Shown one piece after another: positions 4,093 to 31,628 of a stretch of 32,109 nucleotides of DNA (positions are counted from its first letter, which is position 1; every line of letters begins with the position of its first letter). Source of the stretch: an uncultured Methanosarcinales archaeon (GTDB lineage: Archaea; Nanobdellota; Nanobdellia; Woesearchaeales; BS150m-G63); the NCBI GenBank assembly GCA_964630685.1, contig CAZVVW010000003.1, positions 1 to 32,109 of the forward strand. The letters are read 5' to 3'. Under the pieces are notes generated by a model. That model was not told the origin of the DNA and did not search any database. It saw only the letters and a list, made by a program, of their open reading frames with translations. The position numbers and the translations under genes are program-made.

Positions 4093-4365
4093 GGATAAGC
4101 AGAAGAGGATGGAAGCAAACAAATACTTCTTAGTGAACTCAATTCTTCCTCAGTTTCGCGACCCTACAAGCACCAATGTTGATGATTAATGCTGCTCCAT
4201 TCCTGGCCTGACATGATTCTCAGGAACATTAATCCTGTAGGACAAAACATCAACGTAGGAATTAAGGCTAATAAGCAAAGTTTACACCTCTCCCCAACAT
4301 TCAGCCCCGCCATAAAGCCCATCTGCGGTAACAAGAGAGGGCTAACCCCCCAGCCTAGCTTATCC
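4093..4365 (-). ncRNA. ffs: Archaeal signal recognition particle (7S/SRP) RNA
   Basis: Minus strand: helix 1 GGATAAGC/GCTTATCC; Alu domain with TGTTA motif and AGCCC/GGGCT loop-loop complementarity; helix 8 CAGGCCA-GGAA-TGGAGCAGC (SRP54 site); TATA-like element about 23-30 bp upstream. Confidence 0.92.
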
Positions 4366-5282: not shown

Positions 5283-6425
5283 TTAGTCTTTACCTAAAAT
5301 TATTGATAATGTTTTTTTTATCTTATCTGCAGTATCTTTCCACATATAGTTTTCCAGAATAGTGTTTCTTGCGTTGTTCCCTATTAATTTTCTTAATTTT
5401 TTATCTGAGATTAACACTTCTAGTTTTTTAGATAATGCGTAATGATTTCTTCTTGGAAAATGGAATCCATTGTAATTTTCATCAATATAGTTTTTCATGT
5501 GGCCTATGGGTGTTGCGATTACAGGCAATCCTGTTGCCATTGCTTCCATTGTCGCTAAAGAGCTTGTTTCTGTAAGACTTGGCATCACATAAATATCCAT
5601 TGCATGGAGATAGTCTATGACGTTGTCTTTTGGACCTGTAAGAATCACGTTGCTTTTACTTTTTAGGTATTTTTTTATTTTTGGAATTCCTTCTCCAACA
5701 ATCAATAATTTGATGTTGTGTTTTTTATGTATTCTTAAGAAAGCTCTATAAAGGGTGTATAAATCTTTTTCTCTACCTATCCTTCCTGTGAATCCAATGA
5801 TTGTTGATGTTGGTAGGCCTAATTTCTTTTTTGCCCCTAGTTTATCTAGTGGAGGTCTAAAAGTTAAAGTGTCTATTCCCAAATGAACTACTGCTTTTTT
5901 TGCTTTTATTTTTTGCCAAGAGAGAATCTCTGCTGTGTCTAAAGAAGGCACCATTAAAAGGTCACACCTGTTATATAAAAACCTTGAAATTAATTTAGTT
6001 ATGAGGAATGCTATTTTTTTGGTTATAGGCCCTTTGCCAAGACTCTTGGATACTAATTCTGATTCTATTGAATGAGTGTATGCTGTTAGTGGTTTTTTGT
6101 AGATCTTTGAGAGAATAATTGCTGAAGATCCTATTGGGCCTATTGATTGGGTCCAAACTAGGTCTGCTTTTTGTATGTGTTTTTTTAGTGTAAAGAAGCT
6201 TGGCCTACTTGGCTGATAATCTCCAAGATAAAAATTATGAGTCTTTATTCTTACTAATTTTATGTTGTCTGGTTTTTTGAATTTACCTTTAAACTTTGGT
6301 GCCACAACAGTTATATCATATTCTTTGGTTAATGCTGGAATTATTTGTGAAAGAAATCTTGCTATTCCGTCCCATCTAGGAAGGAAATTATCTGTTGCAA
6401 TTAGTAACCTCTTTTTTTGAGTCAT
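5283..6425 (-). CDS. Glycosyltransferase family 4 (GT-B fold)
   Basis: TDNFLPRWDG N-terminus, GRIGREK, PSLTETSSLATMEAMATGLPVI (ExxxxxxxE motif). Confidence 0.92.
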   Translation of the reverse strand: MTQKKRLLIATDNFLPRWDGIARFLSQIIPALTKEYDITVVAPKFKGKFKKPDNIKLVRIKTHNFYLGDYQPSRPSFFTLKKHIQKADLVWTQSIGPIGSSAIILSKIYKKPLTAYTHSIESELVSKSLGKGPITKKIAFLITKLISRFLYNRCDLLMVPSLDTAEILSWQKIKAKKAVVHLGIDTLTFRPPLDKLGAKKKLGLPTSTIIGFTGRIGREKDLYTLYRAFLRIHKKHNIKLLIVGEGIPKIKKYLKSKSNVILTGPKDNVIDYLHAMDIYVMPSLTETSSLATMEAMATGLPVIATPIGHMKNYIDENYNGFHFPRRNHYALSKKLEVLISDKKLRKLIGNNARNTILENYMWKDTADKIKKTLSIILGKD

Positions 6426-6426
6426 T

Positions 6427-7071
6427 TTATCTTATTTTGTAAAACACCTCAGCATATTTGCAATTATGTTTTAAACCAAAATTCATTGCCTTGAAATAAA
6501 CTCCCCACATTAAAGAGAGCATTGACATCTTTTGACTTTTGAAGCATTTTAATGCTTTGATTTTGGTTTTGAATGTGTCTGATATATCAACTATTAGTTT
6601 AGGAGCACTTGTTCTTTTTATATTTAATGGATTCCAGACATCAAAAGTATAGACATCGCAATGAAACCTCATGGAATCAAATGCTTTTAGCACTAACCTT
6701 TTTGTTGATTTGTGGTCTGGATGCGGATCTGCAGTTGTGTGTGTGAATATTTTAATTGGTTTGTATTTTTTGATTAGTTCTTTTATTTTTTTATGAAGGT
6801 GGTGTTCTTTTGCTTCTTTTTGGAAATTTCCTTCTGTCAATCCAAAGAATACTGTTTCTTTTGCACCTATTAATTTATCTGCTTTAAGAGTTTCTTCTAC
6901 CCTCATTTTAATTGTAAATTTACTCTTAAACCAAGGATGGCTACTTTCACCATAAGAAAAAATAACTGTGACTATCTTTGTTCCTTGTTGAGCATACTTT
7001 GCTACTGTTCCACCTGCTCCGAAAATCTGATCGTCTGGATGTGCTCCGAAAACGAGTACTGTGTCAACCAT
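6427..7071 (-). CDS. PIG-L/LmbE family N-acetylglucosaminyl deacetylase
   Basis: AHPDD, R..E, HPDH, VDIS..K..AL..FKSQ and E.F motifs. Confidence 0.92.
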   Translation of the reverse strand: MVDTVLVFGAHPDDQIFGAGGTVAKYAQQGTKIVTVIFSYGESSHPWFKSKFTIKMRVEETLKADKLIGAKETVFFGLTEGNFQKEAKEHHLHKKIKELIKKYKPIKIFTHTTADPHPDHKSTKRLVLKAFDSMRFHCDVYTFDVWNPLNIKRTSAPKLIVDISDTFKTKIKALKCFKSQKMSMLSLMWGVYFKAMNFGLKHNCKYAEVFYKIR

Positions 7072-7120
7072 AATATGAAAATAGAATAAAGGAGTTAATT
7101 AAGTTTTCTATTAAATTACT

Positions 7121-8317
7121 TCATTTATCTTTTTTGTTTGGTTTGTGGTTTTTATAAAAAGAGGCCATTTTATTAGAATAATATTTTATTAATTTTTTAT
7201 TTTTTATTTTAATTTTTAATTGATCTTTTGATAGTAATTCTCTTTCGTGCATTCTTGAAAGGAAATCTCCTACAGACTCTTTTGCTTTTAATAATTTAGG
7301 ACTATACGACTCATATAATTTAATGTATGTTTTGTTTATCTTTTTTCGTAAATTTTTAAGATATATTGTGTCTGTTTTGGAAGATTCTAAACAATGAGCT
7401 ATTGCAGAATAATAAATGTCTTGTTCAAGAATAGGTATTGTTTTACTTAGTTCTTGTTTAAGATATTGTGATAAATCTTTTACTGCTTTACCTATATGTT
7501 CTTGAGATTCTGGATTTTCATTAAAAAAATCATTTAAACTTATTGGTTGTCCAACATGCATATAATTCACAATTGGATCTTTTCTAAAACTAAAAAAATC
7601 CTTAATTAAGTTAATCTTTTCTGCTTTTGATTTTCTATTTTTTGAAAAACGAACGTCTTCTGGAACTCTAGAATATGCCAACCCTATAGGTACAAATAAA
7701 ATATCCTCTATTTTTTGAGATGTTTTGTTTTCAAAATAGGTTTTTAAAATAAATCTAGTCATTCCTTTTTTAAAATTGCCTAAGTGCCCTGTTCTAGAAC
7801 GGGTTCCCTCTGGAAAATAGAGTAGTGATTGTCCTTCTTCTAGGTTTGTTTTGATATATGTTTGAAGAATATCAAAATAATCTGAGTCTTGTTTTGAACG
7901 TTTTAATTTAAATGCTCCACAAGATTTGAAAAGAAAATCTATTGCTTTATTGACGAATAGGTTATCTCCTGCAGCCATTAAAGGGTATGGAAAATTATTA
8001 TTGTAAAGTGATGTTCCTAATATTAATGAATCTAAATTAGAAATATGGTTAGGTATATAAATCACTGGTTTTTTTGGGTTTGAAATAATCCTTGGATTGG
8101 AATCTATATCCATAGAAACAAATGTTTTTAATAAAGGAAGTATTGGTTTATATATCCAAGAAACTATTTTTAACATTGGTTGTTTTGTTCTTGCTGCGAA
8201 ATCTTCTAATTGTTCTTTTTGGGAAAACATTTCTTCTATTGTTGGGTGTTCTCCCCTAGCTAATTGCTTTTCTTTGTAATTGATGAGTGTTTTGTTTAGT
8301 AATTCTTCCAGTTCCAT
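7121..8317 (-). CDS. Glycerol-3-phosphate/lysophospholipid acyltransferase (PlsB/PlsC, GPAT/DHAPAT-like)
   Basis: Block I NHISNLD (HxxxxD), AAGDNL, block II GAFKLKR, block III FPEGTRSRTG, block IV FVPIGLAY. Confidence 0.88.
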   Translation of the reverse strand: MELEELLNKTLINYKEKQLARGEHPTIEEMFSQKEQLEDFAARTKQPMLKIVSWIYKPILPLLKTFVSMDIDSNPRIISNPKKPVIYIPNHISNLDSLILGTSLYNNNFPYPLMAAGDNLFVNKAIDFLFKSCGAFKLKRSKQDSDYFDILQTYIKTNLEEGQSLLYFPEGTRSRTGHLGNFKKGMTRFILKTYFENKTSQKIEDILFVPIGLAYSRVPEDVRFSKNRKSKAEKINLIKDFFSFRKDPIVNYMHVGQPISLNDFFNENPESQEHIGKAVKDLSQYLKQELSKTIPILEQDIYYSAIAHCLESSKTDTIYLKNLRKKINKTYIKLYESYSPKLLKAKESVGDFLSRMHERELLSKDQLKIKIKNKKLIKYYSNKMASFYKNHKPNKKDK

Positions 8318-11732: not shown

Positions 11733-11758
11733 TGTTACTGTTTAGTAGTTAAATAATA

Positions 11759-11772
11759 GAAAGATTTATAAA
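11759..11772 (+). promoter_or_regulatory. BRE/TATA promoter of the transglycosylase-response regulator pair (likely leaderless mRNA)
   Basis: GAAAGA-TTTATAAA ends about 22 bp before ATG 11795; no SD in between. Confidence 0.6.
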
Positions 11773-11794
11773 GGGTTATTGGCTATTTTCCCCT

Positions 11795-12754
11795 ATGAGG
11801 GGTAATAATCTTATAAAAATAACTAGATATGTTGATGATCATTATGAAGTCAGCTATATAGATAGAAAAAAGCCTAAATCAAACAGATTAAACAAGGCTG
11901 TGATAGGTGGGTTAGCTTTAGTTGTACTTGTAGCAGGAATAAGCACACTCAAAGGGAATAAGTATCAACCTGTTGAAACTAAACCAAGTATTGAAAATAT
12001 ATTTAAACAAGATTATAATTTAAATTTAGTTGAAGAAAAATCTATTAATTCTCTTGAATCTGCTATTGAAAGAAATGTTGATAGGCTTGTGGATAATGCT
12101 TATAATAAAAGAAGTGTTGGAAATGCTTTTTCTGAATTATCTAAATATGATGATTATTTGACTCGAGCCAGTGATGAGACTGGAATAGATAAAAATTTAC
12201 TTTATGCTGTTTTTGCTGCTGAATCCAAAGGAAAATTGAGGGCAAATTCTCGTGTTGGTGCAAAAGGTCCTGCTCAATTGATGAAAGGAACTGCAAAAGA
12301 AATGGGATTAAAGATAGATGATGTTGTTGATGAAAGATATGATCCTGGAAAATCTCTTATTGCGGGTGCTGAATATTTGAATAAATATAATCAATTTAAT
12401 GAAGATTATCTTATGTTAATTGCATATAATTATGGTCCAACTATAACTAATAAAATGGTTAAAAAGTATGGTAAAAGTTGGGACAATCTTAAAGGGCATC
12501 TTCCTACTGAAACCAGAAATTATGTTGTTAAAGTGTTAAGTAGGAAAAGATTATTGGATGAAGGGTTTGGATTCAATAAAAATATTTTATTTTCTGAGGA
12601 GTTAAGAAGTACTTCTAATTATACAATCCGAAAAGGAGATACCATCCATCAAATATCTAGAAAAAAAGGTAAAAGTGTTAAGGAAATAAAAGAAACTAAT
12701 CCACATATAAGAAATTATGATAAAATAAAACCTGGAATGATTTTGAAGGTGTAA
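11795..12754 (+). CDS. Membrane-anchored lytic transglycosylase (SLT/GH23) with C-terminal LysM domain (MltD-like)
   Basis: TM AVIGGLALVVLVAGI; catalytic AES, S..GAKGPAQLM, DERYDP, AYNYG, ETRNYV; LysM YTIRKGDTIHQIS...N...IKPGMILKV. Confidence 0.93.
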   Translation: MRGNNLIKITRYVDDHYEVSYIDRKKPKSNRLNKAVIGGLALVVLVAGISTLKGNKYQPVETKPSIENIFKQDYNLNLVEEKSINSLESAIERNVDRLVDNAYNKRSVGNAFSELSKYDDYLTRASDETGIDKNLLYAVFAAESKGKLRANSRVGAKGPAQLMKGTAKEMGLKIDDVVDERYDPGKSLIAGAEYLNKYNQFNEDYLMLIAYNYGPTITNKMVKKYGKSWDNLKGHLPTETRNYVVKVLSRKRLLDEGFGFNKNILFSEELRSTSNYTIRKGDTIHQISRKKGKSVKEIKETNPHIRNYDKIKPGMILKV

Positions 12755-12755
12755 A

Positions 12756-13115
12756 ATGGATAAAAAAATAATTATTGCAGAAGATGATTTTGGAATGAGA
12801 TGTAGATATTTAGAAGTCATGAAAGAGTTTCCTAATGTTGATGTTGATCAAGTAGGTGATGGTTCTGAATTGGTCAATATGGTTAAAGAAAACAATTATG
12901 ATTTAATAATTACTGATAACAGTATGCCTCACATGAATGGGTCTGAAGCTATTAAAAAAATAAGGGAATTTGATCCTAAAACTCCAATCTATATTATTAG
13001 TGGAGATAATTATTTAGGAATGTTTGTAGAAAAAATTGGTGCTAATGGTTTTATAGATAAAATGTATGGAGATAGTGGGTTAATTAAATTAATTGAAGAC
13101 TGTCTAAAAAAATAG
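12756..13115 (+). CDS. Single-domain response regulator (CheY-like receiver)
   Basis: IIIAEDD, DLIITDNSMP (phospho-Asp), NG, ISG, GANGFIDK. Confidence 0.92.
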   Translation: MDKKIIIAEDDFGMRCRYLEVMKEFPNVDVDQVGDGSELVNMVKENNYDLIITDNSMPHMNGSEAIKKIREFDPKTPIYIISGDNYLGMFVEKIGANGFIDKMYGDSGLIKLIEDCLKK

Positions 13116-13173
13116 TTTTCTCACTGGACATTTGTACGTAAACTTTTTTAATGACTGGTTCTTATTGTATCTT

Positions 13174-14382
13174 ATGAAGTGTTTGATGTGCAAAACTGTG
13201 GGTGTATTTGAAAGATGTTTGTGTGCTAGCTGTGCAAAGAAAGAAATTTTTAACAAAGTTAAAGATTTTAAAAAAGATTTTTTTGGTTCTGTGCCTAGTC
13301 CTTTTATTGGCCATTATAATTATCCCAATGTCAATGTTGGTGTATTAAGTTTACAGGATATTAGGGCAGATGCAAGTAGTTTTGATGCTCCGCGTGAGTG
13401 GGCTGCACTAAGTAAAAAGATTTATGATGTTCTTGATTATAGGTGTGCTTTAGTTAATGCTAGAAAAAAATCCAATGTTCATAAAATTGAAGATGTTGCT
13501 CGGTTAGTTGGAGTTGCTGCAAAACCTGTTGAAATGGAAATTGATTTAAAGAAAAAACCTGGTTTTGGATTAAATTTTAATTCTGAAGCGTCGCCTTATG
13601 GACCTAATGTAGAAGTTGAAAAAGCTAAGATAACTGAAAATGTTAAAATAGCTAGGGCTGTTGAGAAAGTGGGAGATGATTATGATTTGAAAGCAAATGA
13701 TGCTTTGAGTTATCTTTATAAAAAAGGATTTGATGAAAATTTTTTATCAAAAGTTTTGAGTGTTGGATCTGTTGGAGTTGGGAAAAATAGAAAACTCGTA
13801 CCAACAAGGTGGAGCATTACTGCTGTTGATGATTCTATGTCTAAAGGTGTCATTAGTGGGTTGAGAGATTTTAATGAAATAAATTATGATGTTTATTTTG
13901 GGGGTTATTTGGGTAATTACTATCTTGTCTGTTTTTTTCCTGGTGAGTGGAGCTTTGAATTGTTTGAAAGCTATGTAGAAAAAAAGGTTAATCCTTGGTC
14001 TGGGGAAGGGTTGAGATATGCTACTGATTATGAAAACGTCTTTGGAAGAAAAGAATATGCTAAAGAAACTGCTGGAGGATATTATGCTGCAAGGCTTCCT
14101 GTTGCTGAAAAGTTAAAAAGTTTGAAAAGAAAAGGCAGTGTTTTGGTGTTTAGGTTTATCACTGAAGAATACACTGTTCCGCTGGGAGTATGGGTTGTTA
14201 GGGAAGCTGTGAGAAAGGCTTTGGATAATAAACCACTCAATTTTGGAAATAAAATGCTTATGTTAAAATATGCTCAAATTCTTGTTAAGAAAAAATTTGG
14301 TGTTAATATAGAGGATATGGTTGGGAAAAGTGTTTTGTTAAAAGAAATGAAAACTCAAAAAAGATTGATGGCTTTTGTTTGA
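13174..14382 (+). CDS. nreA: Nre family archaeal DNA repair protein (PCNA-interacting)
   Basis: N-terminal Cys cluster, PSPFIGHYNYPNVNVG, RKLVPTRWSITAVD, AGGYYAARL, Y..PLGVWVVRE, C-terminal PIP QKRLMAF; ATG at 13174. Confidence 0.9.
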   Translation: MKCLMCKTVGVFERCLCASCAKKEIFNKVKDFKKDFFGSVPSPFIGHYNYPNVNVGVLSLQDIRADASSFDAPREWAALSKKIYDVLDYRCALVNARKKSNVHKIEDVARLVGVAAKPVEMEIDLKKKPGFGLNFNSEASPYGPNVEVEKAKITENVKIARAVEKVGDDYDLKANDALSYLYKKGFDENFLSKVLSVGSVGVGKNRKLVPTRWSITAVDDSMSKGVISGLRDFNEINYDVYFGGYLGNYYLVCFFPGEWSFELFESYVEKKVNPWSGEGLRYATDYENVFGRKEYAKETAGGYYAARLPVAEKLKSLKRKGSVLVFRFITEEYTVPLGVWVVREAVRKALDNKPLNFGNKMLMLKYAQILVKKKFGVNIEDMVGKSVLLKEMKTQKRLMAFV

Positions 14383-15991: not shown

Positions 15992-16756
15992 TCAGAAAAA
16001 ACCCAATCTATTCATTAAATTTTGAAAAAATCCTGGGCGAACACCTTCTTCATATCTTTTGCCAGTCAAAGTTGCTGCTAATTTCTTAAATTCGATTGAT
16101 GCTGGGGAATCGGGGAATGCATACACTAATGGGTGATTCATTTTTAATGAATTTTTAACTTGATTGTCTTCAGGTATTGCTGCTATAACATTTTTTCCTA
16201 AAATTAATTCTATATTTTTTATAGAAATTAAGTCTTGGTTGGTTGATTTATTTAGTATTACTCCTTTCACTTCAACATTGTTTTTTTCTGCTAATTTTAT
16301 TGTCTTCAATGCTTCTGTAACAGAAGGCATATCTGCGTTAGTGACAACTAATAGTTCATCTAACATGCTGAATATTGGGGCTACGTCGCTTGTTAATCCT
16401 GCAGCCATGTCTATAACTGTTAAATCTCCCATTTCTTGATCAAATAAAAGGTTGCTTAGTTTTCTTGGATTTAATTCGCCCAATTCATCTAAAGATATTG
16501 ATGCTGGCACTATTTTTAGTCCAGAAGGATGTTGATATGTTGCTTCTGTTAGATTATTTTTTCCATTTAATACGTCGTGAATGGTTATTGGCACTAATGG
16601 TGCTCCCAAATGTATTGCTATGTGAGGTGTTGCTAGGTTTGCATCTAACAAAATAGTGTCGTGTCCAAGATTATTTAGTGCCATTGCTAAGTTAATAGAT
16701 ACAGTGGTTTTTCCCACCCCCCCTTTTCCTGAAGCAATTCCAACGTATTTAGTCAT
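15992..16756 (-). CDS. minD: MinD/ParA family ATPase with C-terminal amphipathic membrane-targeting helix
   Basis: Deviant Walker A SGKGGVGKTT, DAN, IDMAAG, IPED; C-terminus GFFQNLMNRLGFF; alternative start at 16768. Confidence 0.88.
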   Translation of the reverse strand: MTKYVGIASGKGGVGKTTVSINLAMALNNLGHDTILLDANLATPHIAIHLGAPLVPITIHDVLNGKNNLTEATYQHPSGLKIVPASISLDELGELNPRKLSNLLFDQEMGDLTVIDMAAGLTSDVAPIFSMLDELLVVTNADMPSVTEALKTIKLAEKNNVEVKGVILNKSTNQDLISIKNIELILGKNVIAAIPEDNQVKNSLKMNHPLVYAFPDSPASIEFKKLAATLTGKRYEEGVRPGFFQNLMNRLGFF

Positions 16757-17225
16757 CTTCTTTACCATAAATTATTTCATTTACAAGTTCTATAAATCTT
16801 TTTGTTCTTGCATAATATTCATTAATTTCATCTAGATTTATTTCATATCCTTTGCCATCTATACTTGTAATCATTGCGACATGTCTTCGGTATTCTTTAA
16901 TTTTTGTATAATCTTCTGTTTTATTTAATTTTCTTAAAAGTAAAAAAAAGTCTATCATGTCCCTTAATTCTTCACTGAATTCTTCTCCAGTGTATAATCC
17001 CCTAACTAATTCTGCCCTCAATAGCATACTTTTAGGAAACTCTCCTATCTTTCCTTGTTCTACAGCAAACTTGAGTAGTGCTGTTGATCCAAAACCAAAA
17101 GTATTGACCATTCTTTGGAGAATATTTCTTATTACGTCCACTGTTCGAGTATATTTTAGACTAACATAAACAGAGTGATCTATCCTTTTCAATTCTTGTC
17201 TTGCATCATGTAAAGATTCTTTCAT
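16749..17225 (-). CDS. Hypothetical helical protein, possible HEPN-like fold
   Basis: Intact 158-aa ORF overlapping both neighbours; resembles the upstream ORF (DH motif, EYRR, C-terminal EY..RTK.FI). Confidence 0.6.
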   Translation of the reverse strand: MKESLHDARQELKRIDHSVYVSLKYTRTVDVIRNILQRMVNTFGFGSTALLKFAVEQGKIGEFPKSMLLRAELVRGLYTGEEFSEELRDMIDFFLLLRKLNKTEDYTKIKEYRRHVAMITSIDGKGYEINLDEINEYYARTKRFIELVNEIIYGKEDD

Positions 17226-17691
17226 TTTCAGATGTTATTTTTTCTATATCTTGTATAAATGATTTTGTTCTTGAAATATATTCTTTTATTTCTTTCAAAG
17301 ATATGCTCTTCATTCTGTAATTGGAAGAACATATTATAAATTTATCCTTTCTAGAGAATTCTACTGGTGAATTTTTGTGTTCTAATAAAAGATTATGTAA
17401 ATCTTTTATTAAAAAAATATAACTTTGATTTAAATTATGACGTTTTGCACAATTATCTTTTAATATTGAAAATTTTGAAGCGAAATTCTCTGAGAGGGAA
17501 GGAATTCTTTTAAACAATCTTTCATGATAGAGTAAAGAATTCATGCTATTAGTAAGGGAGAGAAAAATATTTCTCATAGCTGATAATAAAAGTTTGGGGT
17601 CTTTGACTAAATTATATGTAACAAAAACCATGTGGTCTGCTATATGTATATTTTTTTTCGATTCTGCTAGATATTCTTGAAACTTCTCCAT
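17206..17691 (-). CDS. Hypothetical helical protein, possible HEPN-like fold
   Basis: Intact 161-aa ORF with TATA-like TTTAAAAA upstream; ADH, EFSR and EYISRTKSFI resemble the adjacent ORF. Confidence 0.6.
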   Translation of the reverse strand: MEKFQEYLAESKKNIHIADHMVFVTYNLVKDPKLLLSAMRNIFLSLTNSMNSLLYHERLFKRIPSLSENFASKFSILKDNCAKRHNLNQSYIFLIKDLHNLLLEHKNSPVEFSRKDKFIICSSNYRMKSISLKEIKEYISRTKSFIQDIEKITSENERIFT

Positions 17692-18307: not shown

Positions 18308-18598
18308 GGTAAAGTAAGCCGCCTTCTGTTGGTTCTCTTTGAAAGAAAAAACCATCTTAACATTCTACTTTGCGCCTAAAAAGACTTGCACAAACCAGGG
18401 CTCGCCGTTTCAACTGTCCCAATGAAACGTCTGTTGGTTAACTCGCTTCTGTCACCAAAAGCTTCGCAAACATCATTCTACTCATTGGAAGTATCGTTTC
18501 TGAGCGGTTGCCATCCATTGCTGAATCTTGCTCCTGCAAGTGATTACGATAGTGGGCGGACTTTCCTCAGTAATATCTACCGATAGTTAAGCTTTACC
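18308..18598 (-). ncRNA. rnpB: Archaeal RNase P RNA
   Basis: Minus strand: P1 GGTAAAG/CTTTACC, CR-I GAGGAAAGTCCGCC, CR-II CAGAAAC, CR-III TGAAACGG, GTGCAAG, CR-V AACAGAAGGCGGCTTA; BRE/TATA GAAAAGCTTAAAAA at 18623-18636. Confidence 0.93.
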
Positions 18599-20081: not shown

Positions 20082-22529
20082 CTATCCCACTATTTTAGCT
20101 GCTGAGACTACTCTATCTCCTTTTTTCAACCTCATTAATCTAACTCCCTGAGTGTTTCTGCCTATTTGAGAAATTCCGTTTGTTGGAGTTCTTATAGTGA
20201 TTCCTTTTTGACTAATGAACATCATTTCATCATTATCTGTTACAGAAGAAATTGCAACTACTTTTCCATTTCTTTCACTGCATTTAATGTTAATAATTCC
20301 TGAAGTTCCTCTATGAGTTATCCTATAATTTGAAATTAGAGTTCTTTTCCCATATCCATTTCGAGTTATTGTTAATATGCTTTTTTTATCTTCAGCAACA
20401 ACCATTCCAATCAACTCATCTTTTTCTTTAAGTTTGATTCCTTTCACCCCTGTAGCAGTTCTTCCCATTACTCTTACTTCTGCTTCTTTGAATCTTACTG
20501 ATTTTCCATTTTTGGTTGCTAATATTACTTGTTGAGAATTATTTGTTAATTTGACTCCAACTAAAGAATCATTTTCCCTTAAATTTAATGCTATGATTCC
20601 GTTCTTTCTTGGTTTGGAATATGCTGAGAGTTTTGTTTTCTTAATAATTCCATTTTTGGTTGCCATAACTATATTTCTAGAATCATCAAATTTCCTTACA
20701 GGTATATATGAAGTAATCTTTTCTCCTTTTTGTAATCCCAAAATATTAACAATAGGTAATCCTTTTGATGCTCTTGCTGCATCAGGAAATTTATATATTT
20801 TTGACCAATAAACTTTTCCCAAATCTGTAAAGAATAAAATATATGAATGCGTATTTGCTATAAATAAATCTTCAATAAAATCTTCTTCTTTTGTTGTTGC
20901 TGCTATTACTCCCTTACCCCCTCTTTTTTGTCCCCTGTATTCATCTACAGAAGTTCTTTTGATATATCCGGCATTAGTTATTGTAACTACAACTTCTTGT
21001 GGTTTGATTAAATCTTCTTCATCTAAAAGTTCATCTCCTCCCTCTAATATTTCTGTTTTTCTTTCATCACCATATTTTTCAATTAATTCTTTTAATTCTT
21101 TTTTGATAATATTCCTTATTTTTTGGTTGCTTTCTAAAATTTCTTTTAGATTTTTGATAAGATTTAGTTTTTCTTTTAATTCATCTATTATTTTATTTTG
21201 TTCTAAAGAAGTTAATCTCTGTAATTTCATATCTAATACTGCTTGTGATTGTTTTTGTGTTAACTTAAATGTATTTTGAAGAGCTTGGTTTGCTACATCT
21301 GGCGATTTGCTTTTTTTGATAATTGTTATTGCTTGATCAAGATGATCTAAAGCTATTTTTAATCCTTCTAAAATATGTGCCCTTTCTTCAGCAATTCGTA
21401 AATCATATTTTGTTCTTTTTGTTACTACATCTATTCTATGTTCTATGTATTTTTGTAATATTTGTTTAAGATTTAATAATTTAGGAACGTTTTCAACCAG
21501 GGCAAGGAGATTTATTCCAAAAGTTGTCTGTAATGCTGTGTGCTTGTATAATTTATTTAACACTACTTCTGAATTGGCGCCTGATTTTAATCCAATTACT
21601 ACTCTGATTCCTTCCCTATCTGATTCGTCTCTTAATTCTGAAATTTCTTTTAGTTTTTTATCTTTAACTAATCCTGCAATATTAATCAATAAAGAAGATT
21701 TATTTACTTGATAAGGAATTTCTGTAACAATAATTTTTGATCTATTTTTAGTTTCTTCTATATGTGTTTTTGCTCTTAATCTTATTTTTCCTTTTCCTGT
21801 TTCGTATGCTCTTTTTATTCCACTAACCCTTGTAAGTGATGCAGAGGTTGGAAAATCTGGACCTTTAATGTGTTGCATTAAATCTATTATTTTTGCATCA
21901 GGATTATCTATCAAATGAATTATTGCGTTTGAAACTTCTGTAAGGTTGTGTGGAGGGATATTAGTTGCCATTCCAACTGCTATTCCCGAAGAACCGTTGA
22001 TCAATAGATTTGGTAATTTTGATGGAAGGACTTTTGGTTCTTTTAGACTATCATCAAAATTAGGGGTAAATTTTACTGTTTCTTTATCTATATCTGAAAG
22101 CATTTCTGTTGAGATTTTGCTTAATTTTACTTCTGTATACCTCATAGCTGCAGCATTATCACCATCTATACTTCCAAAATTTCCTTGTCCCCTAACTAAT
22201 GGGTATCTTAAAGAAAAATCTTGGACCATACGTACCATTGAATCATAAACTGCTGTGTCGCCGTGTGGATGATATTTACCCAAAACTTCCCCCACAATTC
22301 TTGCAGATTTTTTAAATGATTTTGTATTAATTATACCCATATCATGCATTGCGTATAAAATTCTACGATGAACTGGTTTTAATCCGTCTTTTACGTCTGG
22401 TAATGCTCTTCCAACTATCACAGACATAGAATAATCTAGATAAGATGATTTCATTTCATCTTCTATTAATCTTGGAATTATTTTTTCCACTATTTTTTCT
22501 TCTTCTGTTAGGATTTCCTTTTTAGTCAT
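20082..22529 (-). CDS. gyrA: DNA gyrase subunit A
   Basis: [22 protein letters not shown], catalytic [15 protein letters not shown], GyrA-box QKRGGKG, beta-pinwheel repeats. Confidence 0.97.
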
Positions 22530-23493: not shown

Positions 23494-24078
23494 TTAGTTT
23501 AAACTATAAGTCTTTTTTTGTTTCTTTACTTTCTTTTCTTTAATTAGTACTTCCATGAATTTTTTTAATTCTTTTTCTGGAACTCCCGTGTTCTTTGAGA
23601 GTTCTGTTAGTTCCTTTTCTTTATCTTTTAGTGCAAGATGTATTAAATTTCTTAAGAATATTGCGCTATTTTTTTTCAATACTTTATTTTCTTGCCCAAA
23701 ATTTTTAGCTAACATATCTATCTTATGTAATCTTGCTTGAAGGTCGTTAAGTATATCTGAAAAATCGTTAGAACTATAATTTAAATTGGAAGGTTCAATT
23801 ATTTCAACACTTGAAGGCATATAATCAAAACAAAATTCCACTATTCTTTTAGTGTCTTTCATTAAGGTTTCTAATTCTACAAACATTGTAAAAAGCCCAT
23901 CTTTTTCTTCTGGTTCTACATAATCTTCTTTGATTATCTCTATTGTTTTATCTTTTTTCAATAATTCAATATATTCTTTTAGTGTTTTTTCTAGGTGTTC
24001 TTTTGGTTTTCCGAGCATTTCTATTATGAAATTACAGTGTATCCATCCTTCGTTGATTTTTTGTTTAATTTTATCCAT
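23494..24078 (-). CDS. Conserved-looking hypothetical protein (possible ferredoxin-like N-domain plus C-terminal HTH-like segment)
   Basis: IEMLGKPKEH, F.ELE, FDYMPSSVEIIEP, LNDLQARLH; ATG at 24078 after AGAGGA; ends 3 bp before scpB. Confidence 0.6.
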   Translation of the reverse strand: MDKIKQKINEGWIHCNFIIEMLGKPKEHLEKTLKEYIELLKKDKTIEIIKEDYVEPEEKDGLFTMFVELETLMKDTKRIVEFCFDYMPSSVEIIEPSNLNYSSNDFSDILNDLQARLHKIDMLAKNFGQENKVLKKNSAIFLRNLIHLALKDKEKELTELSKNTGVPEKELKKFMEVLIKEKKVKKQKKTYSLN

Positions 24079-24175
24079 TTTATCCTCTATAATTTGTAAA
24101 TTATCGGGCTTTAAAAAGGTTTCGTAAAACATATAAATAAAGGTGGTGAACTATGGTTTGTGAGGGTGTAAACTA

Positions 24176-24901
24176 ATGGATGAATGGATAATTAGTGAGA
24201 ATTATATGGAATTTGAAGGGATAAATCTATTTGTAATGGTAGATGAAGAAAGGGGAAATTACGAGATGTCTATCATCATGCCTTTTTTAGATAATATAAA
24301 TTATCTTCTTCAATTAGGCAGAAAATTTTGGGATGCTGAATTTACGTTTCACGAGTCTAATAATTTTTATTATCTTAAAGATAAAGAAAATAATTATGTT
24401 ATAGATAGAAATACTAAATGTGCAAATTTAACATTTTCTAGAGAAGATCGTAAAGGATTTTTGTTAGAAGAAGATATTGAAGAATTATTTGATTCTTATC
24501 GTAAAGTTAAAGAAATGGTGAAGATAAGTGATCATGATTTTAATGGATTAGATGATTATCTTCTTAATTTTGGTTATGATGATTTAATTAAAGGAAAAAC
24601 AGATAACCTCTCTTATGAAAGAGGTTTTGAATCCCAATTTAAATTACAAAAAGAGTATGTTGAGGGGGCTGAAAGGGATATTTTTGCGGAGATAGATAGA
24701 ATTATGAAAACTCCATTAACTTATGAGGAAACAATTGATTTTATGCTTGAGGGGATTAGTGAATTGAAAAAAAATGTTAAAAAAGGGAATAATAAAGGTA
24801 TTGAATATTCTAAACAAAGAATAGAACATTATGCTAAAAAATTAGATTATGAATCAACAGAAATGTTAGAGAAAATTATTAATAAAAAAAGATTGAATTA
24901 A
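24176..24901 (+). CDS. Hypothetical acidic protein
   Basis: Intact 241-aa ORF, GAGGGTG SD, no recognisable motif. Confidence 0.6.
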   Translation: MDEWIISENYMEFEGINLFVMVDEERGNYEMSIIMPFLDNINYLLQLGRKFWDAEFTFHESNNFYYLKDKENNYVIDRNTKCANLTFSREDRKGFLLEEDIEELFDSYRKVKEMVKISDHDFNGLDDYLLNFGYDDLIKGKTDNLSYERGFESQFKLQKEYVEGAERDIFAEIDRIMKTPLTYEETIDFMLEGISELKKNVKKGNNKGIEYSKQRIEHYAKKLDYESTEMLEKIINKKRLN

Positions 24902-27393: not shown

Positions 27394-27400
27394 TTGTTTT

Positions 27401-27486
27401 GCGAGGGTGTCAGAGTTTGGTCAAATGACTAAGGTTGAGGGCCTTAGGCCTTAGTGGCTGCGCGGGTTCAAATCCCGTCCCTCGCA
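27401..27486 (+). tRNA. tRNA-Leu(GAG)
   Basis: GCGAGGG/CCCTCGC acceptor, anticodon arm TAAGG-TTGAGGG-CCTTA, long variable arm, TTCAAAT; conserved position between rpoD and rpl18e. Confidence 0.95.
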
Positions 27487-27497
27487 TTAATATTACT

Positions 27498-27848
27498 ATG
27501 AAGAAAACAGGACCAAGTAATGAGGAACTGAGAAACCTAATACAGGACTTAAAGCAGTTATCACTAGATCAAAAAGTGCCTTTATGGAAAAGGATTGCAA
27601 AAGACCTGGAGAAATCAACAAGGCAACGTAGAATTATTAATATCTCTAAAATAAATCGTTTTTCTAAAGCAAACGAAACTATTATAGTTCCTGGAAAAGT
27701 TCTCGGTACTGGAGATATAAATCATAATATTACAGTGGCCGCATGGCAGTTTTCTGAATCAGCTAAAGATAAAATAAAAAACCTTTTGACTATAAGGGAA
27801 GTGATGAAAACAAACCCAAAAGGGAAAAAATTAAGGATTTTAGGATAA
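27498..27848 (+). CDS. rpl18e: 50S ribosomal protein eL18
   Basis: LWKRIAKDL, INISKINR, VPGKVLGTG, VAAWQFSESA; ATG at 27498 (the ORF-track start lies inside the tRNA). Confidence 0.96.
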   Translation: MKKTGPSNEELRNLIQDLKQLSLDQKVPLWKRIAKDLEKSTRQRRIINISKINRFSKANETIIVPGKVLGTGDINHNITVAAWQFSESAKDKIKNLLTIREVMKTNPKGKKLRILG

Positions 27849-28973: not shown

Positions 28974-31628
28974 ATGGTGAACTTCAAGAAAATAGCTGAT
29001 AAGTGGCAAAAAGAGTGGGATAAAAAGAAGATATTCTGCTCAAAGTTATCTAAGAATAAAAAGAAGTTCTATTGTTTAGAGATGTTTCCATATCCTACTG
29101 CAAAATTACACATGGGCCATGTTAGGAATTATTCTATTGGTGACTCTATCGCTAGATACAAAAGGATGAAGGGGTTTAATGTGCTCTACCCAATGGGTTA
29201 TGACTCTTTTGGTATTCCAGCAGAAAATGCTGCAATCAAATCAGGAGCAGACCCTAAAAAATGGACTGAATCAAACATCATCCAGATCCAACAACAACAA
29301 AAACAATTAGGGCTGAGCTATGACTGGGATAGAGAAATAGCAACTCATACAGAAGAGTATTACAAGTTCAACCAATTATTTTTCAGTGAAATGTTCAAAA
29401 AAGGATTAGCATACAGAAAACATTCTCCAATTAATTTTTGTTCAAAATGTCAAACTGTTTTAGCAAACGAACAAGTAGAAAATGAAAAATGCTGGAGGTG
29501 TGGGACAGATGTTGAGCAAAAACACCTTGAGCAGTGGTTTTTAAGAATCACAGAATATGCAGACCAATTGTTGGAAGATACTTCTAAATTAGAAGATTGG
29601 CCAGAAAAAGTAAAGATTATGCAGAAAAATTGGATAGGAAAATCTTATGGTACTGAAATCTTTTTTAAAATAAAAGATTCAGATAAAATTATATCAACCT
29701 TCACGACAAGACCAGACACAATCTATGGATTAACATATCTTGTCTTTGCACCAGAACATCCTTTAGTATTAGAATTAGTAAAAAATACAAAATACGAAAA
29801 AGAAACTAAAGAATTCATAAAACAAGTAAAAAGAGAATCCGTAATTGATAGAATGGATGAATCTAAACCTAAAAAAGGCATGTTTATTGGAAAATATTTC
29901 ATAAATCCTGTAAATAACGAAGAGTTACCAATATGGATCTCTAATTATGCTTTAGCAAATTATGGAACTGGAGCTGTAATGGCTGTTCCAACTCATGATC
30001 AAAGAGATTTTGAATTCGCAAAAAAATACAAATTACCATTAAAAGTTGTAATAACTTCTCCAGATTATACTCTTGACCCAAAAAAGATGGTAAGAGCATA
30101 TACTGATGAAGGGGTAATGATTAATTCAGGAAATTTTGATGGAGAAAATAACAATGACTCAATAAACTCCATTTCAGATTTCTTAGAAAAAAAAAGTTGG
30201 GGAAAAAGAACAGTGAATTACAAACTCAGAGATTGGTTAATTTCTAGACAAAGATATTGGGGAACGCCAATTCCGATAATTTACTGTGATAATTGTGGGC
30301 CTGTATTGGTTCCAAAAAAAGATTTACCTATAACCCTTCCTAAAAATCCAAAAATAACTGGTCAAGGAAACCCATTAGATAAAATCCCCTCATTCATTAA
30401 CACTAGATGTCCTAAATGTAAAGGGAAGGCGAAAAGAGAGACAGATACAATGGATACTTTCTTTGATTCCTCTTGGTATTTTTTAAGATATTGTTCTCCT
30501 AAAAATAATAAACTTCCTTTTGATAAAAAAGAAGCAAACTATTGGCTTCCTGTGGACCAATACATAGGGGGAATAGAACATGCTATTCTTCATCTGCTCT
30601 ATGCAAGATTTTTTACTAAAACTCTTAGAGATTTAGGGTATGTTGATGTAGATGAGCCATTCAAAAAATTGCTTACTCAAGGAATGGTGCTTAAAGATGG
30701 TATCAAAATGTCTAAATCTTATGGGAATGTTGTTGACCCTGGAAAGATTATAGAAGAATATGGTCCAGATACTGCAAGATTATACATGCTTTTTGTTGCA
30801 CTGCCAGAAAAAGAATTAGAATGGAGCGACAAAGGTGTTGGTGGATGTTTTAGGTTCTTGAAAAGATTGTATTCTTTGACTGAATTTCCTAAATCTGAGA
30901 GCAATCTCAAAGATAGTTATATGCTCAGTAAAACACATAGTTTAATCAAAAAAACAACAGAATTATTTGATAAATATCAGTTTAGTATAGCTATCTCTCT
31001 AATGATGGAATATACTGGTGCTTTGATAAAAAATAAAAGCAATATTTCGACTAAAATTTACAAAGAATCTTTGAGTGCTCTTTGTTTACTATTATCTCCA
31101 TTTATACCTCATGTTACAGAAGAGGTTTGGAGTAAACTTATGAATAAGAGTCTTATTTCTGCAGAAAAATGGCCTAAATATAATGCTAAAAAAATAAATC
31201 CAGAATTTGAAGCGGCAGAACAGATAATATCTCAAGCTACAAAAGATATCAATTCAATTAAAGAATTGATTAAAACTAAACCTAAAAATGCAGTGATTAT
31301 AATTTCAGAAGAATGGAAGTATTCTTTATTCAAAAAAATCCAGAAGAAGTTGGATAAAACAAGAAATCTTGGAGAAATTATTGAGGCTGTTATAGATAAA
31401 AAACATCAAAAAGAGATTCCTAAAATAGTTCAATCAATATTAAAGGACCTTACAAAAATTCCTGAAAATATTCTTGACCAAAAAAGAGAGTTAAAAACCC
31501 TTCAAGAATCTAAATCAGAAATAGAAAAAGAAACTAACTTAAAGATAGAAATCATAATTGCAGAAAAGAGCGAGGAACAAAAAGCAAAATCTGCAACACC
31601 TCATAAACCATCAATACTACTTCAATAA
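28974..31628 (+). CDS. leuS: Leucine--tRNA ligase (bacterial-type core, archaeal-type C-terminal domain)
   Basis: MFPYP..LHMGH, PAENAA, CP1 [46 protein letters not shown]-terminus W K...A.P.KPSI. Confidence 0.96.

Follow-up and report, generated by a model that had tools for sequence, protein, structure and literature searches.

A native SLT-LysM gene of a Woesearchaeota-like archaeon encodes a predicted surface-tethered, MltD-like lytic transglycosylase

Introduction

Lytic transglycosylases of the SLT type cleave MurNAc-GlcNAc bonds, and archaea do not make murein. The locus described here raises two questions: whether its gene for such an enzyme belongs to the archaeal genome in which it was assembled, and what the enzyme would act upon. 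The DNA analyzed is a stretch of 32,109 nucleotides (hereafter, the window), and the gene in question, referred to as the SLT-LysM gene, lies on its forward strand. To our knowledge, no DPANN archaeon with a bacterial host has been cultivated, and we know of no bacterial partner of any Woesearchaeote. PMC11868695 describes it as unconfirmed whether Woesearchaeia live freely or depend on an archaeal or a bacterial host.

Results

Domain architecture and catalytic motifs

The following features of the gene were assigned from its translation, profile matches, and a structural model.

11795..12754, plus strand: SLT-LysM coding sequence, ATG start, 319 aa plus stop
12047..12589, plus strand: lysozyme-like catalytic domain, residues 85-265, including additional helices on its N-terminal side (Pfam SLT, AF2, Foldseek)
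12221-12223, plus strand: codon of the predicted catalytic Glu143 (motif and alignment with 8rhe)
12620..12751, plus strand: single LysM domain, residues 276-319 (Pfam LysM; beta-alpha-alpha-beta in the model)

A first-pass annotation of this DNA had described complete GH23/SLT motifs and a C-terminal LysM domain, and had proposed a search with the Pfam profiles. Both domains of the open reading frame scored above the cut-offs. The SLT profile (PF01464) matched residues 121-227 with 79.1 bits (E 2.4e-22; cut-off 21.3), covering positions 2-110 of its 117, and the LysM profile (PF01476) matched residues 276-319 with 39.6 bits (E 5.1e-10; cut-off 20.9). There is one LysM, and the protein terminates at it. 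The translation contains all the described motifs, namely A-E143-S144, G158-P-A-Q161-L-M, A210-Y-N-Y-G214, and E239-T-R-N-Y243-V. In a family alignment of 30 sequences, E143, N212, and G214 were invariant (30/30), and S144, G158, Q161, Y211, E239, and T240 were at least 90% conserved. The combination of E-S, G-x-x-Q, A-Y-N-x-G, and a downstream Tyr is the family-1 lytic-transglycosylase motif set of the Blackburn and Clarke classification. These matches support the assignment of the protein to the GH23/SLT lytic transglycosylases, with the catalytic Glu of the domain intact and a LysM domain joined to it. Its predicted functions are murein cleavage, yielding a 1,6-anhydroMurNAc product, and glycan binding by the LysM.

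Predicted fold and comparison with MltD

The AF2 model had a mean pLDDT of 86.5 and a pTM of 0.73, with residues 85-319 above 93. The catalytic domain is predicted to adopt a lysozyme-like, all-helical fold, in which extra N-terminal helices (87-100 and 102-129) precede the start of the Pfam SLT match at residue 121. The modeled LysM has the beta-alpha-alpha-beta order (strand 275-277, helices 284-291 and 295-301, strand 316-318). The six best PDB matches from Foldseek were all Pseudomonas aeruginosa MltD (8rhe, 8rhf, and 8rhi; E 1e-8 to 6e-8). Against 8rhe and 8rhi, the model aligned over 240-244 columns with an rmsd of 3.7-3.9 Å and a TM(target) of 0.65-0.66, while the rmsd was 12-15 Å against the MltD chains with a mobile LysM2. 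As 240-244 columns exceed the 191-residue catalytic domain, LysM1 is co-aligned, and in the model the LysM appears packed on the catalytic domain as in MltDcat-LysM1. A total of 53 PDB matches had E<=1e-3, and those listed were Slt, Slt70, MltC, MltD, MltE, MltF, and T7 gp16.

The best PDB match by sequence was also 8rhe (E 2.2e-9), and E143 fell on the Glu of its ES motif. Provided that the chain of 338 residues consists of the construct 76-393 and 20 residues of tag, this Glu is the catalytic Glu144 of PMC11327851. An extra N-terminal helical region that extends the cleft is a hallmark of family 1D, and the cleft of P. aeruginosa MltD binds chitotetraose, which was used as a substrate mimic that is not turned over (PMC11327851). 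The modeled archaeal protein appears to share with MltD (8RHE/8RHF/8RHI) several hallmarks described in the same paper: the extra helices, the packed LysM, a catalytic Glu within an ES motif, and a membrane anchor from which the protein extends by a long, flexible tether.

The two proteins nevertheless differ in several respects. They are only approximately 20-22% identical; the archaeal protein has a transmembrane signal-anchor where MltD has a lipobox Cys, it has one LysM where P. aeruginosa MltD has four, and its host has no murein of its own. E. coli MltD has two LysM domains. The NCBIfam MltD equivalog NF008050 gave 51.5 bits, far under its cut-off of 508, and thus the protein is MltD-like in architecture and not an MltD ortholog.

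N-terminal tail, membrane anchor, and topology

The region upstream of the catalytic domain was divided into three segments.

11795..11893, plus strand: basic tail, predicted cytoplasmic, residues 1-33; beta-hairpin predicted for residues 6-23 (charge count, AF2)
11894..11953, plus strand: single predicted transmembrane (signal-anchor) helix, residues 34-53 (Kyte-Doolittle, AF2)
11954..12046, plus strand: low-confidence linker (tether), residues 54-84 (AF2 pLDDT, dN/dS)

The only hydrophobic peak above 1.6 (Kyte-Doolittle, 19-residue window) was at residues 34-53, with a value of 2.09, and the AF2 model has a helix at residues 31-51. Six K/R were counted in the 15 residues preceding this segment versus three after it, and residues 1-34 contained nine K/R versus four D/E. 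The N-terminal basic stretch and membrane anchor of the first-pass annotation were thus recovered as one transmembrane segment with a positive-inside bias. The protein contains no Cys and hence no lipobox Cys. It is predicted from these features to be membrane-tethered with its N-terminus inside and its C-terminus outside. The hairpin of the tail consists of strands 6-13 and 16-23 (pLDDT block means of 67/92/69 in AF2), and a segment resembling it was restricted to the closest relatives in the 30-sequence alignment. Residues 55-83 of the tether had a pLDDT below 50.

Genomic context and evidence of native residence

The flanks of the gene had been called archaeal in the first-pass annotation, and this was borne out. 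The features around the gene include the following.

4093-4365: archaeal SRP RNA, 137 bits
18308-18598: archaeal RNase P RNA, 139 bits
12756..13115, plus strand: stand-alone CheY-like receiver, 119 aa (Pfam Response_reg, E 1.5e-20)
13132..14382, plus strand: archaeal Nre gene (Nre_N/Nre_C), likely start at M15, position 13174

The window also encodes three tRNAs, aIF5B, NAC, Trm1, and ribosomal protein genes in archaeal order. An ortholog 75% identical to the SLT-LysM protein, named 'transglycosylase SLT domain-containing protein [Candidatus Woesearchaeota archaeon]' by NCBI, was found in a Woesearchaeota MAG (L001) that is fully syntenic with the window from PIG-L to the RNase P RNA. A second archaeal MAG (L002), which carries the bin label 'Methanosarcinales', encodes a 41% identical protein directly upstream of nre, and nre is the conserved downstream neighbor of the SLT-LysM gene in 3/3 archaeal loci. 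The identical SLT-LysM protein was recorded on five contigs.

Divergence of the gene follows that of its neighbors: the identity to L001 was 75% for SLT-LysM and 87-88% for Nre and H+-PPase, and that to L002 was 41% for SLT-LysM and 46% for Nre. Its GC content (0.294) and GC3 (0.157) were compared with those of 30 window genes (0.308±0.034 and 0.195±0.036, respectively), and its codon-usage distance ranked 15 of 30. The dN/dS against L001 was 0.18 for the catalytic domain and 0.17 for the LysM, compared with 0.47 for residues 1-84 (tail, transmembrane segment, and linker) and 0.10 for Nre and PPase. The gene is a long-standing resident under purifying selection. Gene order in L001, adjacency to nre in L002, typical composition and codon usage, and the dN/dS values together uphold the earlier reading of a native gene, and they support its belonging to a Woesearchaeota-like genome and not to an assembly chimera.

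The receiver reading frame begins 1 nt past the SLT-LysM stop codon, and the two genes are probably co-transcribed. This arrangement is kept in L001 and absent in L002. The receiver is 51% identical to its L001 ortholog and retains D10, D54, S82, and K102. At a distance of 3.5-6.5 kb upstream of the SLT-LysM gene is a cluster encoding a GT4 glycosyltransferase, a GlcNAc deacetylase of the PIG-L type, and an acyltransferase, all syntenic in L001. This cluster is on the opposite strand, and a tRNA, a DHH gene, and the H+-PPase gene stand between it and the SLT-LysM gene.

Upstream promoter-like block

A conserved block precedes the start codon.

11742..11788, plus strand: invariant upstream block with archaeal promoter-like BRE/TATA elements (identity to L001)
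11758-11764, plus strand: BRE-like purine-rich AGAAAGA (sequence reading)
11765-11772, plus strand: TATA-like TTTATAAA, 23-30 nt upstream of the ATG (sequence reading)

The BRE/TATA pair noted in the first-pass annotation was found upstream of the ATG inside this block, which matches L001 at 47 of 47 positions. In six further intergenic regions, all syntenic and 50 nt or longer, the longest run identical to L001 was 22 nt or less, and the synonymous sites of the SLT-LysM gene itself differed from those of L001 at pS 0.44. The block may act as a promoter. As the TATA-like element is centered approximately 26-27 nt ahead of the first nucleotide of the start codon, the mRNA would be leaderless or nearly so. 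A scan for sigma-70 promoters and intrinsic terminators, which is not informative in an archaeal genome, gave 7 promoter sites against 10.0±3.5 in shuffled sequences and no terminators.

Relatives and phylogeny

A pattern-based locus scan from a 10-sequence alignment confirmed 159 relatives; among the loci of the best 80, 2 had archaeal and 78 had bacterial titles, and these counts are not a measure of archaeal prevalence. Single-sequence searches contributed few further named relatives. The archaeal SLT-LysM genes compared here come from three loci, namely the window, L001, and L002.

The first-pass annotation had proposed a phylogeny to distinguish an archaeal clade from a recent transfer. 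An MltD-like clade was supported (SH-aLRT 98) in FastTree with 227 domain rows and IQ-TREE with 70 rows. The latter was a quick tree of 3 archaeal rows and 19 rows drawn from the 78 bacterial loci, completed by 38 short and 10 other representatives; 31 of its 67 inner branches were unresolved, and L002 fell outside the clade of the window. A constrained tree that kept the 3 archaeal rows apart from the 19 labeled bacterial rows was not rejected (p-AU 0.756), and its lnL was 18.6 better than that of the free quick tree. Neither archaeal monophyly nor a donor was recovered from the 227-row or the 70-row tree, whose backbone was unresolved.

A phage origin was also considered and rejected, as 0 of 225 matching phage records reached a coverage of 80% and every one of them was below 60% identity. 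The search for longer or fused relatives returned 3 matches with E<=1e-5 among 4,559 candidates, none of them close, which is weak evidence; the best was a Flavobacterium protein with 35% identity over 50% of the query.

Discussion

Proposed mechanism

The explanation that we favor, at a probability of roughly 60%, is that the protein belongs to the MltD type of lytic transglycosylases (family 1D, GH23), is anchored in the membrane in type-II orientation, faces outward, and acts on the bacterial wall. The flexible tether of approximately 30 residues would position the helical catalytic domain a few nanometers above the archaeal membrane, where the LysM and the extended cleft could bind a GlcNAc-MurNAc glycan strand. 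Glu143, as the single acid/base residue, would protonate the MurNAc-(1,4)-GlcNAc bond, and the C6-OH of MurNAc would close the 1,6-anhydro ring, so that bacterial peptidoglycan would be cut without water. In this way the enzyme may open the wall at a local site or hold on to it, which would serve attachment, access to the membrane of the partner, or feeding. Because murein is absent from the archaeon and the enzyme is predicted to stay on the archaeal surface, its substrate would be the wall of a contacted bacterium or wall fragments that arrive at the cell, and a bacterial host or prey would be implied. Among the points that count against this explanation, the tether gives a short reach, an S-layer, if present, could block access of the enzyme to the wall, and the protein has a single LysM, compared with two to four in bacterial MltD.

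Alternative explanations

The same enzyme may serve another ecology, in which free peptidoglycan debris or nearby bacteria are scavenged or antagonized for nutrition (GlcNAc/anhMurNAc-peptides) or competition, with no specific host or stable attachment. We consider this possible but unlikely. The enzymology would be supported by the same evidence as above, nothing in the window indicates a host, archaeal peptidoglycan hydrolases are treated as weapons in PMC12352652, and a predatory or 'vampiristic' recycling role was proposed in Vigneron 2022 (PMC9723730). However, the protein has one transmembrane segment and is predicted to remain anchored with no sign of release, which suits contact better than diffusion, and no muropeptide transporter or anhMurNAc-catabolic gene was found among the 31 ORFs of the 32 kb window. 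It is more doubtful that the substrate is something other than murein, such as chitin or chito-oligosaccharides, a surface glycan of the archaeon itself, or the pseudomurein of a methanogen partner. GH23 includes chitinases, and the GT4, PIG-L-type deacetylase, and acyltransferase genes upstream could be related to a glycan of this kind; they are, however, separated from the SLT-LysM gene by the intervening genes and lie on the other strand. LysM can bind chitin and pseudomurein according to PMC12352652 (citing Visweswaran 2012), and chitotetraose fits the groove of P. aeruginosa MltD, where it was only a mimic that is not turned over (PMC11327851). Both the motif set and the predicted fold are those of the family-1 lytic transglycosylases, in which one Glu alone is catalytic, and the backbone and linkage of pseudomurein differ from those of murein, as PMC12352652 states.

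The gene would be an artefact or a passenger if the assembly were chimeric, if the stretch were a bacterial contaminant, or if the gene had been acquired horizontally in recent times and perhaps had no function; this explanation is close to refuted. The family is overwhelmingly bacterial by the 78 of 80 loci from the best 80 of 159 relatives, and the nearest Atlas clusters were 100% bacterial with scores of 0.88 that serve as leads only. Against this stand the same gene order in another assembly (L001), the adjacency to nre in L002, the typical composition and codon usage, a dN/dS of 0.17-0.18 in the functional domains, the conserved native promoter-like block, and a next gene that begins 1 nt past the stop codon. 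A further proposal, to which we give little credence although more than to an artefact, retains the bacterial wall as the target and adds a switch: the CheY-like receiver would act on the cytoplasmic N-terminal hairpin or on the promoter-like block, and the enzyme, an old, vertically inherited Woesearchaeal surface module, would be not constitutive, cutting only upon contact with a bacterium. The tail hairpin and the receiver are both present in the window and L001, and neither is present in L002, a pairing that is barely more than an anecdote, as it comes from a pair of genomes that are close relatives and a third that is distant. If true, the module would work as a regulated 'can-opener' and would offer, for the first time, a concrete molecular handle for tracing bacterial hosts of DPANN archaea.

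Comparison with published wall-cutting enzymes

GH25 lysozyme transfer was reportedly described by Metcalf in 2014. T7 gp16 was among both the sequence and the fold matches, and its N-terminal domain, like the lytic transglycosylases of phages and secretion systems, uses an SLT domain that locally breaches the wall of another cell; unlike those enzymes, the SLT-LysM gene is flanked by housekeeping genes without virion or secretion-system genes.

The first-pass annotation had also called archaeal peptidoglycan hydrolases rare and little studied in DPANN, which was overstated. In PMC8204110, PMC9723730, and PMC10936187, murein-like lytic transglycosylases of Woesearchaeota/Pacearchaeota are already proposed to bind and degrade bacterial walls in an episymbiont or a predator, and PMC8204110 (Castelle 2021) cites Rinke 2013 and Castelle 2015. 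Family fam00969 (Castelle 2021), the AR20 protein (Castelle 2015), and GH23 (Vigneron 2022) resemble our protein in lineage, catalytic domain class, and proposed role. Members of fam00969, compared here by their description there and the shared Pfam domain, are large multi-domain proteins of up to 3,000 aa, whereas the SLT-LysM protein has 319 aa with SLT and one LysM.

According to Strock 2025 (PMC12352652), modular peptidoglycan hydrolases occur in 175 of 3,706 archaeal genomes and are 'particularly prominent' in Nanoarchaeota, and the survey list (S10 table) has SLT as a catalytic and LysM as a binding domain. Those archaeal hydrolases share with ours the bacterial-type catalytic and wall-binding domains and a predicted export signal, but the proteins described there as assayed were secreted haloarchaeal M23-type enzymes and not SLT-LysM. 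We found no description of the small SLT-LysM form in Woesearchaeota/DPANN in the open-access papers searched.

Significance

The bacterial-wall inference for Woesearchaeota/Pacearchaeota is not a new idea, having been published in Castelle 2021, Vigneron 2022, and Strock 2025. What is new is small, namely the 47-nt invariant, putative promoter block and the translationally coupled CheY-like receiver. With an ectodomain of approximately 235 residues, a confident model, and closeness to a crystallized enzyme for which there is an inhibitor, bulgecin A, the protein is a more practical candidate for a first biochemical test than the 3,000-aa proteins. It suits the view, already in print, that archaea of this kind attack bacteria or attach themselves to them and, as a native, selectively maintained, and presumably surface-tethered enzyme that is predicted to cleave murein, it would be one of the few gene-level clues to a physical engagement between DPANN archaea and bacteria.

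Domain architecture and topology of the SLT-LysM protein

The gene and its domains were delimited as follows.

11795..12754 (+), SLT-LysM coding sequence, ATG start, 319 residues
Residues 121-227, SLT domain PF01464, Pfam 79.1 bits (gathering score 21.3), E 2.4e-22
Residues 276-319, at the extreme C-terminus, single LysM domain PF01476, Pfam 39.6 bits (gathering score 20.9), E 5.1e-10

Both Pfam HMMs were matched above their gathering scores, which confirmed the SLT/LysM identity proposed by the first-pass annotation, and the GH23/SLT motifs that it had listed were found in the translation (A-E143-S, G158-P-A-Q161-L-M, A210-Y-N-Y-G214, and E239-T-R-N-Y243-V). In an alignment of the 30 closest relatives, E143, N212, and G214 were invariant, and S144, G158, Q161, Y211, E239, and T240 were conserved at 90% or more.

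The basic stretch and transmembrane anchor noted earlier were also recovered: a Kyte-Doolittle scan gave one hydrophobic peak (residues 34-53, 2.09), with six K/R among the 15 residues that precede the segment versus three after it, and the protein contains no cysteine. Because of this single peak, the K/R bias, and the lack of cysteine, the pattern is that of a predicted N-in/C-out signal anchor and not of a lipoprotein; cleavage behind the hydrophobic segment is possible. The N-terminal hydrophobic segment was common to the aligned closest relatives. A β-hairpin was predicted by AlphaFold2 in the cytoplasmic tail (window 11810-11863, residues 6-23, block pLDDT up to 92), and a similar segment was seen in the closest relatives (P0002-P0005 and P0028), not in L002/P0023, L002 being a distant archaeal MAG contig.

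Predicted fold and comparison with MltD

The AlphaFold2 model, built on the 30-sequence alignment, had a mean pLDDT of 86.5 and a pTM of 0.73, with residues 85-319 above 93 and residues 55-83 forming a disordered linker. The top six Foldseek matches in the PDB were all Pseudomonas aeruginosa MltD (8rhe, 8rhf, and 8rhi; E 1e-8 to 6e-8), which was also the best PDB match by sequence. Superposition on 8rhe/8rhi covered 240-244 columns at 3.7-3.9 Å with a TM(target) of 0.65-0.66; the rmsd was 12-15 Å against MltD chains containing the mobile second LysM. The next matches were Slt, MltF, Slt70, MltE, MltC, and T7 gp16.

Family 1D is described as marked by additional helices at the N-terminus and by packing of a LysM against the catalytic domain, and P. 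aeruginosa MltD is described as having a long tether to its membrane anchor and Glu144 as the catalytic residue (PMC11327851). Both hallmarks are present in our model, and E143 aligns to Glu144 provided that the 338-residue chain represents the 76-393 construct plus a 20-residue tag. The protein differs from MltD in its anchor (a TM helix versus a lipobox Cys), in its number of LysM domains (one versus four in P. aeruginosa MltD), and in its score against the NCBIfam MltD equivalog (51.5 bits versus a cut-off of 508). As the hallmarks are shared but these three features differ, the modelled protein is MltD-like in architecture, probably also in mechanism, and is not an MltD ortholog.

Archaeal context and native status of the gene

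The archaeal flanks described in the first-pass annotation were borne out on both sides of the gene by the following features, together with aIF5B and NAC.

4093-4365, archaeal SRP RNA, full-length match above the Rfam gathering score
Two genes downstream of SLT-LysM, archaeal Nre gene (Nre_N E 5e-69, Nre_C E 9e-31)
18308-18598, archaeal RNase P RNA, full-length match above the Rfam gathering score

The window also carries Trm1, the gene rows S13-S4-S11-RpoD and L13-S9, and three tRNAs. The Nre gene probably starts 3' of its listed TTG (window 13132-13173), the L001 ortholog aligning from M15 (13174).

A scan in which each species was represented by a single genome recovered L001, a Woesearchaeota MAG contig, and its synteny with the window runs from the PIG-L deacetylase gene to the RNase P RNA. 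The common order is PIG-L deacetylase, acyltransferase, tRNA-Gly, DHH, H+-PPase, SLT-LysM, receiver, Nre, FAD oxidoreductase, tRNA-His, ParA-like, NAC, and RNase P RNA. On L002 (5788-7937, GC 0.35-0.42), labelled Methanosarcinales archaeon, the SLT-LysM gene (41% identity; SLT E 3e-30, LysM E 1e-10) adjoins nre on its upstream side, directly upstream as in the window; beyond this pair the genes are other ones and the receiver is absent. Either the bin label of L002 is wrong or the family extends past Woesearchaeota.

The SLT-LysM gene diverges in step with its neighbours, with identities of 75% to L001 (Nre 87%, PPase 88%) and 41% to L002 (Nre 46%). Its composition is ordinary for the window (GC 0.294, GC3 0.157, codon-usage distance rank 15 of 30). 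Nei-Gojobori dN/dS against L001 was 0.18 in the catalytic portion, 0.17 in the LysM, and 0.47 in the tail, TM, and linker, compared with 0.10 for Nre and PPase, at a dS of 0.6-0.8, which is high and not saturated. Owing to the L001 synteny, the nre adjacency in L002, the neighbour-like divergence, the ordinary composition, and the dN/dS values, neither a chimera nor a recent import is likely, and an artefactual locus is very unlikely. The first-pass annotation was therefore right to treat the gene as native: it belongs to an archaeon and is under selection there. The nearest named protein (75% identity) is a 'transglycosylase SLT domain-containing protein [Candidatus Woesearchaeota archaeon]', and an identical SLT-LysM protein is on record from five contigs.

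Promoter region and receiver gene

The sequence TTTATAAA lies at 11765-11772, with AGAAAGA just 5' of it. At the usual archaeal TATA-to-start spacing, a TATA centre this near the ATG gives a leaderless transcript; since the centre of TTTATAAA is 26-27 nt 5' of the A of the ATG, a leaderless SLT-LysM transcript is predicted. All 47 consecutive positions of the non-coding block 11742-11788, which takes in the BRE/TATA and approximately 20 nt on either side, are the same in L001. The longest identical run was at most 22 in six other syntenic intergenic regions (at least 50 nt), whose overall identity to L001 was 72-86%. This conservation supports the native-looking BRE/TATA promoter read from the sequence, and as the conserved stretch exceeds what BRE and TATA require, it hints that the block may hold an additional regulator binding site. 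Scanning for sigma-70 promoters, which says little about an archaeal sequence, gave 7 sites versus 10.0+/-3.5 in shuffles, and intrinsic terminators numbered 0.

A stand-alone CheY-like receiver of 119 aa (12756-13115, +) begins 1 nt past the SLT-LysM stop codon. The receiver, present in this arrangement in L001 and absent in L002, is 51% identical to its L001 ortholog (dN/dS 0.41) and keeps the phospho-acceptor residues D10, D54, S82, and K102. Judged from sequence, it is translationally coupled to the SLT-LysM gene and fast-evolving. The 31 window ORFs scanned yielded no histidine kinase domain.

Relatives and phylogeny

Of the 20,131 proteins that an exhaustive representative-protein search retrieved at E<=1e-3, 3,140 passed E<=1e-10 and 29 passed E<=1e-30. 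The top relatives were nearly all 260-440 residues long and aligned continuously between the helical region and the LysM. Among the best 80 of 159 confirmed relatives at genome loci, two had archaeal and 78 bacterial titles, the latter at 24-41% identity over the best segment and mostly over the SLT domain alone. None of the 225 matching phage records had at least 80% protein coverage, and none reached 60% identity. A search of 4,559 candidates, which is weak evidence, found no long fused form. The nearest Atlas clusters were bacterial SLT+LysM families (0.85-0.88), which serve as leads only.

For phylogeny, the SLT domain was cut out; its HMM matched 230 of 238 proteins, of which 227 were kept. 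The IQ-TREE analysis used 70 rows (three archaeal, 38 short representatives, 19 of the 78 bacterial loci, and 10 other representatives). An MltD-like clade of 58 rows (SH-aLRT 98) held the three archaeal rows, the 38 short representatives, and classical multi-LysM bacterial MltDs. In the backbone, 31 of 67 branches were open, and L002 was placed outside the 14-row group of the window. A tree parting the three archaeal from the 19 labelled bacterial rows was not rejected by the AU test (p-AU 0.756) and scored 18.6 lnL above the free quick search. These comparisons allow a single archaeal origin of the gene and do not demonstrate it.

Other features of the window

Further genes were recorded along the window.

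5283-8317 (-), syntenic cluster of GT4 glycosyltransferase, PIG-L-type GlcNAc deacetylase, and PlsB/PlsC-like acyltransferase
20082-22529 (-), DNA gyrase subunit A, 815 aa, adjoining ScpB
27400-27487 (+), tRNA-Leu(GAG), ARAGORN call
28974-31628 (+), leucyl-tRNA synthetase of bacterial type within the archaeal contig
1158-1505, 16749-17225, 17206-17691, 23494-24132, and 24176-24901, five ORFs (115-241 aa) lacking a match in both Pfam (E<=1e-5) and NCBIfam (E<=1e-3)

The cluster members all score under the NCBIfam equivalog cut-offs, the PIG-L and acyltransferase genes also occur in L001, and the cluster may serve bacterial-type glycolipid or lipid chemistry. Gyrase A matched DNA_topoisoIV (E 2e-165) and six GyrA C-terminal blades; some archaea possess bacterial-type gyrase. 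The synthetase scored 1004.8 bits with NCBIfam leuS_bact (cut-off 548.4) and 284 with leuS_arch (cut-off 648.5). The overlapping ORF pair at 16749-17691 is syntenic in L001, 5' of the ParA-like gene. The Rfam gathering-threshold table contains only the other two tRNAs, and a 137-aa ORF (27435-27848) overlapping the tRNA-Leu(GAG) call is probably spurious.

Proposed function and significance

The basic tail would remain cytoplasmic and the helix of residues 34-53 would anchor the protein, the approximately 30-residue linker giving the catalytic/LysM unit a reach of perhaps 10 nm. The enzyme would bind GlcNAc-MurNAc strands and cut them by the lytic-transglycosylase route, with Glu143 yielding a 1,6-anhydroMurNAc product. 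As the producer has no murein, the target would be the wall of another cell or wall debris, and because the enzyme is tethered, action at cell-cell contact would be favoured. The same enzyme could serve scavenging or antagonism with no specific host, which we consider a minority prospect. A non-murein GlcNAc polymer as the substrate is still less probable, even though chito-oligosaccharides are described as accepted by LysM and the MltD groove (PMC12352652, PMC11327851). The earlier reading of a surface tool against bacterial walls, implying a bacterial host or prey, thus stands in part: the transglycosylase motifs and modelled fold, the predicted outward topology, and the native archaeal gene hold, and a bacterial host or prey is a hypothesis.

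A bacterial-wall interpretation is not new. For large extracellular proteins of up to about 3,000 aa with a lytic-transglycosylase domain in Woesearchaeota or Pacearchaeota, Castelle et al. 2021 suggest that bacterial walls are bound and degraded and that the hosts are bacteria, with reference to Rinke 2013 and Castelle 2015 (PMC8204110). Vigneron et al. 2022 described GH23 enzymes in five and four further Woesearchaeota MAGs and proposed predation (PMC9723730), and the observation of murein-like transglycosylases is repeated in PMC10936187. Of the 3,706 archaeal genomes that Strock et al. 2025 surveyed for binding-plus-catalytic architectures, with SLT and LysM on their lists, 175 had such architectures, Nanoarchaeota being prominent, and the study showed haloarchaeal enzymes to kill bacteria (PMC12352652). 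In the open-access papers covered by full-text search, no description was found of the small, TM-anchored, single-LysM, MltD-like form with a conserved position beside nre. Compact and well modelled, the SLT-LysM protein is a practical candidate with which to put the 'DPANN on bacteria' hypothesis to its first enzymatic test.
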